A DNA stretch of 63,622 nt, counting the filler, from Stramenopiles sp. TOSAG23-2 (lineage: Eukaryota), in the NCBI GenBank assembly GCA_900128395.1. It is 30 parts of 30 records of this genome, joined end to end, with 100 filler letters (N's around TTAATTAATTAA, not from the genome) between each part and the next. Parts side by side here need not be neighbours in the genome. Positions count along the whole stretch, not along the records: positions 12,806 to 14,835 come from LT652100.1; 29 more parts are not named here. One strand, 5' to 3'. Numbering within the stretch: position 1 is the stretch's first letter; each line of letters opens with the position of its first letter. Below the pieces are notes generated by a model. It was given only the letters and a program-made list of their open reading frames with translations. It did no database searches and was not told the DNA's origin. The translations under genes were made by a program, and so were the position numbers. Positions 12,806-52,197 of this stretch are shown one piece after another.

Positions 12806-14031
12806 AATCTATTGATAAAGAAGCAAAATCATTTTGGCCAAATATATGTTGTAAAGAACGCCGAGATACAACATTGGAAGTTTGTGAAGACTCAGATAAA
12901 AAAATTGAACGTGAAAATATTATACCATTTGCATTATCACAAGGTGGAAATTACAGTCGTCATAATTTATACGTAGAAGTGACCGACACGATTAAATATA
13001 AAGGTTATTTACATCAAGGTATGATTAAGTTATTGGATTCGCTTAAATTAATTCGTAATAACAAGAAACAAAACGCAAAAGAAAAGGTTGACAATTTCTT
13101 TAATGGTGTTTCCTTATGTGGTCCACGAATTTTGGATGCTCCTGGAAACCCGGAAAATAAATTATGTGAATTGTTTGTTCCATATAAACATGCAATGAGA
13201 AACTTTTACAGTTTAATTGAAAATCTGTACATGCAACCAATGCCAATCCAGACCTCATCGTCATTTTTAGAAACCATGGAGAAATCGTTACGTAAACGTT
13301 CAGCTGTCAAACGCATAGGTAAAAATAATATGCAACAAGTGATGCAAATGAAACCAAAATCAGAGGAAGCAACATGTGCTGGCGGCTCGAAATGGCCATC
13401 AGAGCTGAAGCAGAAGAAAACTGTGTTTTGTAGTGGCTACAACCATTTAGATTTAAGTGATACGAATATAAAAAATGTGGCTGTGCATTATTTGAAAAAT
13501 GACATTGTTTATAACAATACAAAAATGTTTCGTTTGTCCAAGCAGCTTCGGTATCAAGTAACAGACACCTCCTGCCCTGCGCCATTGTTCACCCCAAAAG
13601 ATATTTCTATCCAGCGGGTTGCAATGGATACGTTAGGCAACGAAACGGAATGGGTTGCCGTAGTAAATTTAAATACGCAAGATAAAAATGGGTATTTACA
13701 AAGTGAATTGCCATATTGCGAGTCAAAACCGTATCTGATTGGTGCAAAAACAATCGTTAAAGCCTATGTGGATAATGACAATGATTGTAATGGGCTGGTC
13801 GATTATGAGAAATGTAAAGATAATTGTGTTAAAGAATGTAGTTTTGGAAAAACTACAGAATTCTCATCGTATTGTGACACAAGTTGTGAAAATAAGTTAA
13901 AAAAATTGAAAGACAAACACCACAAACATTATTCCAAAGACGTGGTGGTGACGGGAACGCAATATACAGTGACGAGTTCACATGTTATTAGGAGGAGGCG
14001 ACTGTTGCAAAATCGGAATAGTGGGTGCTAA
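12806..14031 (+). CDS. C-terminal part of a Cys-rich, probably secreted protein ending in RRRRLLQNRNSGC
   Basis: Frame is open from the contig start; many spaced cysteines. Confidence 0.75.
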
Positions 14032-14146
14032 ATTTTGTTCCTGATAACTCGTGCATAATTTATTTTATATGTGTGCACGCTCTTGTATAAAAATAAGAAC
14101 AAAAGTTAAAAGATAATTTAAATTTCTAGGCTCAAGGTTCTTTATA

Positions 14147-14835
14147 TTACCAACGACAATCTCCCCCATCATAATTACATTCTTTCGCCGTACAAGTTTC
14201 ATCGCAAATACCGTCACCCGATACTTTTCTACTCCAACATGTTTTTGAACACAACGGTTTGCAATCTAATGACTTGTCAGTATTACATGCTATATTTCCC
14301 GAAAAATATGATTCTATTTTATTGTTTCCGATTAATTGTTTTAAATCCTCATTAACATTTGTAATATTATTATCTCTAGCATCTAAATATTGCAAACCTT
14401 TGAACTCCGACAAATACAATGGGAGTGACTTCAAATTGCAACGAGCAACACCTAGGTGTGCCAGACTATCTTTAAGGGATTCATCTGGAAATTGTATTAG
14501 GTCATTGCCATTCAAATACAAAAAGGCGAGACTGGGAAATTGCTTTTTATCAAATCGAGTGTTTATGGTAATTTTATTTTCTCCAAGGTGAAGGTATGTC
14601 AATGAAGGCAAACTAATGCTAGAATGAGGTATTTTCATTCCTACATTATTGAATAATGCAACCCCATCGACATTTGGATGCTCCCACAACGATTCTTCAT
14701 TGTACCTAGTAATATTATTATACATCAAATGCAATTTATTCAATTTTTCCCACTTCCGAACATTCACATTAAACTCCTCCAACCGGTTGAACGATATCTC
14801 AACATCCACCATCTCCGTCAACTGCTCCATTCTCA
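14147..14835 (-). CDS. LRR + C-terminal LNR (Lin-12/Notch repeat) protein, 5' truncated; paralogue of 32245-33968
   Basis: LxxLxLxxN repeats; ends CSKTCWSRKVSGDGICDETCTAKECNYDGGDC. Confidence 0.9.
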
Positions 14836-14935
14836 NNNNNNNNNNNNNNNNNNNNNNNNNNNNNNNNNNNNNNNNNNNNTTAATTAATTAANNNNNNNNN
14901 NNNNNNNNNNNNNNNNNNNNNNNNNNNNNNNNNNN

Positions 14936-16094: not shown

Positions 16095-16570
16095 NNNNNN
16101 NNNNNNNNNNNNNNNNNNNNNNNNNNNNNNNNNNNNNNNNNNNNNNNNNNNNNNNNNNNNNNNNNNTAAATGATTTTATTAATATGATATTTGTTCGCAG
16201 AGTCTACCGTGTTTGTAATAATTTTGAGAAAGTAAAAAATAAAAAATATTTATTTTTTATAATATAATATAATATATTATATGCATATATATTAAAAAAA
16301 AGAAAAAAAAAGTCAATTTTTTTATACGACACACACTTCATTTTAATAAAAATACGGTTTGTATGGGGATACTAAAATAAAAAGTCAAGAAGATTGAGAG
16401 TCAAGTCTAACATCTCAATCATCATTTTCTACCAAAGAAATAATACACTAATATTTTCTCCATCATCAGTAATTGCATAATTATATAGAACACCAGTTAA
16501 TATTTTTCCATTATCAGTAAATTAAATAAATATTATTATAATATCATTATCTAGAGGTCATCTATATATT

Positions 16571-51033: not shown

Positions 51034-52013
51034 GTACCATTCCAGTACCTAAACCATCACATGGACAAGTTTTAGTACGTGTGGTTGCTGCACCAGTAAA
51101 TCCATCTGATTATGGTAAATGGGCAAGGCCATCTGAAAATGATAAACCAAGTATTGCTGGTCTTGAAGGGTCAGGTGTAGTCGTAGCATCAGGTGGTGGA
51201 TATACAGCAAATGGTATGATTGGAAAAAATATTGGTTTTGTAAATGTTAAAAATGGTGGAACATATCAACAATATGTTATTGTCGATGCAAGTTTTGGGG
51301 CGTTTCCATTACCATCGACATTAAAATGTGAAGATGCTGCGTCACATTTTGTAAATCCATATACTGCATGCGGTTTTATTGATACAGTTCGTAAACGTCA
51401 TACTGGTAATAGCTCTAATGTTGGATTTGTTCATACAGCAGCATGTTCCCAACTTGGACAAATGTTAATTAAATTAGCAAAAGAAGAAAATGTAACATTA
51501 ATCAATGTTGTACGTAGAAAAGAACAAGTTGATATATTAACAAAGATAGGTGCAGAAAATATTATTAATACAAGTGATGCGGATTGGAAAGAACAACTTG
51601 GAAATAAAATGAAAGAATTAGGTATTAATGTTACCTTTGATGCTATCAGTGGGGAAATGTCTGGTATTTTAACCGGGTTACTACCAAATGGAGGAACACA
51701 CTTTGCATATGGAACATTGGGTGGACGTACGTGTGAAGGTGTTTTAATGACTGATTTAAGTTATAATAAAAAAAAATTTGAAGGATGGTTATTAACAAAT
51801 TGGATATTAGAACATGGTAAAGGTTTATCAACATTAATGCGTATTAATGCTGCAACGAAAACAGTACATCGTGGTTTAGAAAATAATGGATGGAGTTCTT
51901 CGAAATATTTGGATTGTAAATTAGACAATATGTGGGAAATGTTTCTTGATATGAAAATGAAAAGTGGGTTTACCGGAAAGAAGTTGCGAATACGATTTGA
52001 TCAAGAAGAATAG
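51034..52013 (+). CDS. MDR-superfamily NAD(P)H oxidoreductase (quinone/enoyl reductase-like), 5' truncated
   Basis: AAPVNPSD, GLEGSGVVV, FVNPYTA, HTAACSQLGQML, INVVRR. Confidence 0.92.
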
Positions 52014-52197
52014 AGAGAGGGGAGTGAGGAGAGGGGAAAAAATACGGTTTGTACGTTCGTACTCGTGGGAAATGTTTCTTGATATGAAAATGAAAAGTGG
52101 GTTTACCGGAAAGAAGTTGCGAATACGATTTGATCAAGAAGAATAGAGAGAGGGGAGTGAGGAGAGGGGAAAAAATACGGTTTGTACGTTCGTACTC
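51932..52197. repeat. Exact 133-bp tandem duplication of the MDR gene 3' end
   Basis: 51932-52064 is repeated from 52065. Confidence 0.93.

Follow-up and report, generated by a model that had tools for sequence, protein, structure and literature searches.

Conversion of short segments between paralogues is exemplified by the LRR resistance genes of plants and by the homology blocks of Plasmodium var genes. The MSG genes of Pneumocystis include donor copies that have no promoter of their own; these are brought to a single site of expression, and recombination joins the parts at a conserved recombination junction element (CRJE). A third kind of conserved stretch is found in the NBS-LRR genes of plants, where the sequence coding for the P-loop motif is targeted by miR482/2118. 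A general account of interlocus (non-allelic) gene conversion and concerted evolution in multigene families is given in PMC3924837, and the CRJE of the Pneumocystis MSG genes is treated in PMC2743713 and PMC5676039.

The gene family investigated here has features in common with each of these systems. As in interlocus conversion, a short segment was near-identical among paralogues whose flanks had diverged, ancestry was mosaic, trees depended on the segment from which they were reconstructed and exchange was tied to the best-conserved stretch. Like the CRJE, this segment is a short nucleotide-conserved element at the border between the constant and variable parts of a putative surface protein. 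Like the miR482/2118 targets, it covers a conserved protein motif of a receptor family; the conservation extends to synonymous sites, and the stretch could offer a single nucleotide target for the entire family, although at ~170 nt it is far longer than one target site. The best reading of the data, to which we assign a probability of about 0.6, is homology-driven interlocus gene conversion together with ectopic recombination. The pattern is that of familiar multigene-family evolution and not a new kind of system.

Two paralogues and their protein family

The stretch of DNA analysed (the window; 63,622 bases, GC content 31.6 %) comprised 30 contigs of 2012–2038 nt each, sorted by length. All 30 were joined by artificial spacers of the same design, as exemplified by the spacer between contigs 7 and 8 (positions 14836–14935), which consists of N44, TTAATTAATTAA and N44. 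Two other runs of N, at 16095–16166 (72 N, contig 8) and 40079–40108 (30 N, contig 19), were scaffold gaps and not 44-N spacers.

Only two members of the family were present in the window, gene A in contig 7 (12806–14835) and gene B in contig 16 (31946–33968), both of them on the minus strand. Gene A (14147–14835) is represented by its 3′ part only, comprising the last 228 codons, which encode LRRs, an LNR and the stop codon; it is truncated by the contig end within the family-wide island described below. Gene B (32245–33963) forms a single open frame of 572 codons and encodes, in order, a multi-helix membrane domain, a cysteine-rich cap, LRRs and a C-terminal LNR, with ~58 N-terminal codons absent where the contig ends. 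The two proteins were 57 % identical over 228 aa. Both scored above the curated Pfam cut-offs: gene B matched LRR_4 (37.9 bits, cut-off 27), LRR_8 (32.2, cut-off 27) and the LNR model Notch (29.2, cut-off 21.2), and gene A matched LRR_8 (45.9), LRR_4 (38.3) and Notch (32.2).

An AlphaFold model (mean pLDDT 90.5) contained a bundle of long helices extending to about residue 270, after which came the cysteine-rich part, the strands of the LRRs and finally the LNR; the last membrane helix in the model was H244–270. When the whole model was used as the query in Foldseek, the matches were mostly LRR proteins, with LRRC8A chains among them (E ~1e-7). The predicted architecture resembles that of the LRRC8 volume-regulated anion channel subunits in possessing an N-terminal helical membrane domain followed by C-terminal LRRs. 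It differs from them in that just the LRR part appears to superpose (TM-scores of 0.19–0.27 and rmsd of 30–38 Å over long alignments, with the whole model as query) and in the addition of a cysteine-rich cap and an LNR. As modelled, the likeness to LRRC8 would therefore lie in the order of the parts, and no homology is claimed. The presence of the cysteine-rich cap and the LNR suggests that the LRRs of this family face outwards.

A protein search identified 75 relatives at E ≤ 1e-3 among 3564 candidates, many of which were full-length, with 46–67 % identity. Scanning of metagenome contigs gave 171 pattern matches, which resolved to 37 related loci, including 22 with the prefix JACLAC01, seven with JACKZZ01 and five with Ga0099797. 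Twenty of these loci, together with genes A and B, formed a core subfamily of 22 sequences that carry the motif of the block described below, whereas the other 17 loci possessed a different motif (GPL..LP) and showed no nucleotide similarity at the block position. At locus L013, the 3′ end of a second family member (L013:5–568) was found ~1.7 kb upstream of a full gene and on the same strand, indicating that at least some members are arranged in tandem. Narrow word searches of the literature found no report on LRR-LNR families in stramenopiles or MAST-4, and both the family and its host lineage are apparently undescribed. The family is a large one, made up of membrane proteins of uncultured, AT-rich marine protists.

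A nucleotide-conserved island at the domain junction

A first-pass annotation of the window had reported a near-identical block in two otherwise diverged LRR-LNR paralogues, and this was borne out. The copies in gene A (14771–14834, minus strand; codons for RMEQLTEMVDVEISFNRLEEF, the last coding bases ahead of the contig end) and in gene B (32872–32935, minus strand; residues 344–364) matched at 61 of 64 nt, and the block motif PPRMEQLTEMVDFEISFNRL was present in the family consensus. The identity extended to synonymous positions, as had also been claimed: when only conserved amino acids with degenerate codons were counted, 16 of 17 codons were identical within the first 22 aligned codons of A and B, compared with 52 of 108 within the remaining 204. 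Exactly two exact occurrences of the terminal 28 nt of the block were found in the window, and this match was absent from all 100 dinucleotide-preserving shuffles. On the basis of the shuffles and the codon counts, chance was rejected as the source of the block identity. An ungapped repeat search widened the pair to 166 nt (14669–14834 and 32770–32935) at 76 % identity.

Comparison across the family revealed that the 64 nt block is the core of a wider island; the conservation reported for the block held, but the conserved stretch is longer, at ~170 nt. In gene B this island occupies 32839–33009 (minus strand; residues 319–375), and in gene A the portion present covers 14738–14835 (minus strand; residues 344–375 in B numbering). 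The island is rich in G at third codon positions (G3). It separates the multi-helix membrane domain from the variable LRR-LNR ectodomain and codes for the first LRRs, directly after the cysteine-rich cap.

Among 226 pairs of sequences that were less than 80 % identical, mean nucleotide identity was 73.6 % in residues 336–368, compared with 60.3 % outside the junction region (residues 1–325 plus 379–572) and 58.4 % in the C-terminal part. The excess of synonymous identity over the expectation from codon usage was 0.18 in the block and 0.15 in residues 319–375, against 0.10 in residues 31–318 and 0.06 in residues 376–572. This agrees with the lower synonymous divergence across paralogues that the first-pass annotation had anticipated, with the family average for the island (0.15–0.18) being just moderately higher than that for the membrane domain (0.10–0.15). 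When 21-codon windows were ranked by synonymous excess, 12 of the best 15 started at residues 328–348, and the window corresponding to the 64 nt block itself ranked 16th of 552. Exact matches of at least 20 nt, scored in 168 diverged pairs, were densest at residues 346–375 (means of 17.9 and 13.1 pairs) and almost absent after residue 376 (0–1.4 pairs). Paralogues were more alike in the island than in its flanks, synonymous sites included, and each of them retained private variants inside it.

Lesser islands of identity were detected at residues 1–30 (with exact matches at 16–30) and 76–90. The former corresponds to 33874–33963 (minus strand) in gene B and adjoins the end of contig 16; residues 1–20 of gene B were 100 % identical to locus L008 and 77 % identical to L015, its closest relative.

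The codon make-up of the block was confirmed to be atypical. GC3 of the long frames in the window was 0.21, and GAG (relative use 0.21), CAG (0.16), ACG (0.17), TCG (0.10) and CGG (0.07) were all rare in the window; mean relative codon use was 0.28 in the block, compared with 0.48 in the rest of gene A. GC3 reached the maximum for the gene, 0.67, at residues 341–351 (mean 0.37), and no GC3 peak was seen at the island in the distant subfamily. In 12 homogenised members, G3 was 0.49 for the island as a whole and 0.55 for the block, compared with 0.28 in the upstream and 0.15 in the downstream flank, whilst the corresponding value for C at third positions (C3) was 0.09 in the island versus 0.14. 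The third-position enrichment is thus of G alone and is strand-specific. GC-biased gene conversion is expected to raise both G and C. As G3 was elevated while C3 was not, conversion alone fails to explain the composition of the island, which in this respect is unlike the usual outcome of GC-biased conversion, and GC-biased conversion was rejected as the full cause of the codon bias. The strong/weak asymmetry between gene B and L015 within the island was small (21 vs 14).

This G-specific bias keeps constraint at the nucleotide or codon level a live rival or co-factor, in agreement with the second option of the first-pass annotation, which was a regulatory target at the nucleotide level. Selection on the nucleotide or codon sequence would then be the main cause of the identity, with recombination incidental. 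The cluster of rare G-ending codons might slow translation once the cysteine-rich cap has emerged; alternatively, the island might act across the family as a site recognised by a small RNA or by some RNA-binding protein. Besides the rarity of the block codons and an enrichment on one strand that biased conversion does not predict, the recurrence of the same codons across both deep clades of the family and the start of the island ~50 codons past the last modelled membrane helix are in keeping with such constraint. A mere lead from a different organism, the brown alga Ectocarpus, is the enrichment for LNR-domain proteins reported among predicted miRNA targets (9 of 31, P 1.6e-3; PMC3874173). As the main cause of the identity, constraint nevertheless seems unlikely. 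Six of the 22 core members (L012, L015, L017, L018, L023 and L036) lacked the G-rich codons (GC3 0.16–0.39), and the 171 nt island of gene B folded as RNA no better than shuffled sequences (z +1.18; 176 of 200 shuffles folded at least as well). Under constraint, moreover, close relatives should differ least in the island, but gene B differed from L015 and L017 more there than in either flank, and the incongruent flank trees reported below would be left unexplained.

Assembly of the contig end and of the island

Contig 7 ends at 14835, one base beyond the block, as had been noted previously. Contigs of four public runs (X1–X4, of which X3 was from seawater and X4 from polyA RNA) were aligned to 13800–14835. 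One X2 contig spanned 14450–14822 with zero differences, a stretch that takes in the three block positions specific to A, and an X1 contig was exact over 14608–14775. The independently built X2 contig confirms the A-specific positions, and the block in gene A is therefore its own sequence; the chimeric misjoin with the other paralogue at the end of contig 7, which would have undermined the first-pass annotation, was unsupported. Gene B was the fit for further contigs of X1 and X2 that had 11 differences over 14736–14834, another with four differences over 14790–14830 represents a third copy, and several from both runs end inside the block. The break at 14835 is explained by the halting of short-read assemblers at sequence common to several paralogues.

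The block had been described as a high-copy sequence, but the number of copies appeared modest, with just two or three distinct contigs at ≥85 % identity on the block in X1 and X2, the two source-like runs. Summed depth on the block was 9–11 in X1 and 7–10 in X2, compared with 5.3 and 3.1, respectively, beside it (two or three contigs), values that rest on contigs, from which copy number cannot be derived. In X4, eight contigs lay over 14803, with a summed depth of 38–42 versus 0–7 in the rest of gene A; these may derive from several organisms.

A contig from X3 showed two differences from gene A in 624 nt (14147–14770) and then seven in the 64 nt of the block; at six of these seven sites, X3 had A or T opposite a G or C of the window. 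The contig extends upstream with codons for NCNLTTLPPG, indicating that gene A goes on past the contig end. The X3 contig was considered unreliable as proof of recent conversion in gene A, since contigs assembled from metagenomes may pass from one paralogue to another where the two have a word in common.

Two other pile-ups of contigs were observed in the aligned region. At 13905–13974 (plus strand), the 3′ end of a 385-codon frame (12874–14031) for which no Pfam match was found, contigs of all four runs accumulated at ≥85 % identity, with summed depths of 419–460 in X1 and 529–644 in X4, compared with 2–21 alongside, and with up to 13 X4 contigs per position. The C-terminal tail of this frame looks like another multi-copy, nucleotide-conserved block. 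A second, narrower pile-up, consisting of contigs of other family members, occurred at 14360–14394 in gene A, over the codons of the YLDARDNNI repeat (summed depth 250 in X1 and 95 in X2; aligned pieces of 41–45 nt with five differences each).

The identity, the mosaics or the contig end might instead be products of assembly, if paralogues in unevenly amplified short-read data had been joined into chimeras, collapsed in bubbles or altered by read correction. All of the sources were short-read assemblies, the two contig ends that cut family genes (contigs 7 and 16) both fall in family-shared sequence, contigs from X1 and X2 stop inside the block and the X3 contig could have switched paralogue. 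The window also contained four perfect (100 %) tandem duplications within 2 kb contigs, at 1191–1436, 1642–1957, 42739–43018 and 51932–52197, with units of 123, 158, 140 and 133 nt, respectively; these may be artefacts of assembly or amplification and bear on the trust that can be placed in the assembly. Such an artefactual origin is, however, very improbable in view of the confirmed A-specific positions, the private variants of each paralogue and the location of the island in the interior of contigs of 20–57 kb. In addition, the mosaic protein of the L001 type recurred in another source as a full-length match at 91 %, and the clusters of the L013 and L006 proteins contained two and seven further full-length members, respectively, from other sources. 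L015 and the island consensus have no long exact words in common across the tract, which makes a chimeric path for gene B unlikely.

Ancestry on either side of the island

Phylogenetic trees were reconstructed separately for the upstream (residues 31–315) and downstream (residues 379–572) flanks. The upstream tree was split into groups of 9 and 11 rows with support of 100/100, whereas the downstream tree united L001 with L010 (100/99) and L008 with L013 and L014 (99/99) across this split. The sister of L001 was L008 in the upstream tree (100/99) and L010 in the downstream tree (100/99). AU tests, in which the groups were chosen after the trees had been seen, rejected the groupings of the other half (p 1.1e-6, 1.6e-79, 1.2e-4 and 4.7e-40). 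The tree of the island itself grouped nine rows drawn from both deep clades (92/93), and the AU test for the grouping of gene B with L015 and L017 on the 171 island columns was marginal (p 0.058).

The best single breakpoints in seven informative triplets were located at residues 294–296, 341, 361–369, 363–368, 367–368, 381–382 and 395–396; in the eighth triplet, that of L003, no breakpoint stood out clearly (chi-square 8.8). When distance matrices of neighbouring 50-codon segments were compared, their correlation was 0.8–0.94 through the membrane domain, with a dip to 0.44 near residue 260–265, and reached its global minimum of 0.17–0.27 at cuts 370–395, which correspond to the 3′ edge of the island. 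Strong incongruence between the flanks was accordingly found together with breakpoints clustered at the junction. The incongruence to the left and right of the block for which the first-pass annotation had proposed a test was thus observed, with AU p values from 1e-4 to 1e-79 and breakpoints assigned to residues 294–396 in six of seven triplets.

Gene B is itself a mosaic. It differed from L015, which with L017 is its closest relative, by 7.0 % in residues 29–318, 24.6 % in residues 319–375, 17.3 % in residues 376–535 and 38.7 % in residues 536–572; these close relatives differed more in the island than in the upstream or the downstream flank. Within residues 339–365, all 16 consecutive informative sites placed gene B with L008 against L015 (a result reached in 0 of 10000 permutations). 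Gene B was allied with distant paralogues in the island, whereas beyond the island its closest relatives were its allies. This pattern could equally have arisen in the line of L015 and L017, through local replacement or a burst of changes there. Both L015 and L017 carry a GTAAGT..TAG interruption of ~80 nt at codon 332 (L015:2614–2694 and L017:1701–1787) that gene B lacks, as do most other members. Its absence is in keeping with acquisition of the tract by gene B from an intronless paralogue, although the replacement could have taken place in the L015/L017 line. Interruptions elsewhere, near residues 73–80 and 144–147, were seen in L016 and L036.

Under the preferred reading of interlocus conversion with ectopic recombination, the strongly conserved protein motif at the island would keep paralogues sufficiently alike in nucleotide sequence to recombine homologously. 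Non-allelic conversion between loci would repeatedly overwrite the island and hold it near identity while the flanks drift, and exchanges starting in the island would tend to stop at its 3′ edge, where identity collapses. The outcome over evolutionary time would be the re-assortment of membrane-domain and LRR-LNR ectodomain lineages. The recombination or gene-conversion anchor proposed in the first-pass annotation is in this form the best-supported reading, the island being a homogenised segment at which domain lineages have been re-assorted. The data show the homogenisation, the mosaic ancestry and the location of the breakpoints, whereas the molecular mechanism (conversion or crossover) is an inference. 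As all of the DNA belonged to several organisms and had been assembled from short reads of single cells or metagenomes, we also infer exchange within one genome rather than having seen it.

The position of the island between the more constant and the variable parts, and the breakpoints at its 3′ edge, would also be compatible with a programmed or high-frequency cassette system, in which the island is the junction where a constant membrane domain is fitted with silent or alternative LRR-LNR cassettes. At L032, a 5′-truncated LRR-LNR copy (L032:3109–3822) starts at the block-homologous position, ~45 nt past the stop codon of an upstream full gene, to which it is 92.6 % identical over 680 nt. A set of 11 near-identical proteins, drawn from several assemblies, had 12 variable columns, of which seven fell within the 32 residues immediately beyond the block and four in the LNR, a clustering that fits tract-like polymorphism. 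L032, however, belongs to the distant subfamily that has no nucleotide island, and its truncated copy could be an assembly duplication. In 33 of the 37 loci the match was one uninterrupted frame that included its own membrane-domain part, so that, unlike the situation in Pneumocystis, nearly every copy is a complete gene. No expression site, array of promoterless donor copies or switching was seen among the 37 loci, and in place of the many truncated donors of a CRJE-type system there was the single copy at L032. Proteins of 227 aa that start at MEQ, on contigs of 911–1430 nt, are explained by contig breaks. Finally, the re-assorted halves were 10–30 % distant from their nearest sampled relatives, which indicates old events and not rapid switching. 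We consider a cassette system of this kind highly improbable.

It is likewise very unlikely that the island is a dedicated junction element, in which the G-rich, rare-codon sequence is under selection as a homology anchor or as a structure-prone initiation site. If it were, exchange of ectodomains would be frequent enough to diversify a surface receptor repertoire within populations, and a free-living marine flagellate would possess a CRJE-like system, perhaps linked to the recognition of prey or partners. The first-pass annotation had regarded the block as the best candidate for an undescribed diversification system. Nothing was found that points to one: the pattern is as expected from ordinary conversion and ectopic recombination, identity islands are also present at residues 1–30 and 76–90 of gene B, and most of the loci are uninterrupted frames.

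What this picture leaves unexplained is the composition of the island, with its rare codons and its enrichment in G alone. A practical warning also follows, in that the island breaks short-read contigs and can mislead trees of whole genes. For the biology of these protists, the results describe a surface-receptor-like family assembled from modules with separate histories, namely a membrane domain and a variable LRR-LNR ectodomain, and exchange at the junction between them is a concrete route by which such cells could make new receptor combinations.
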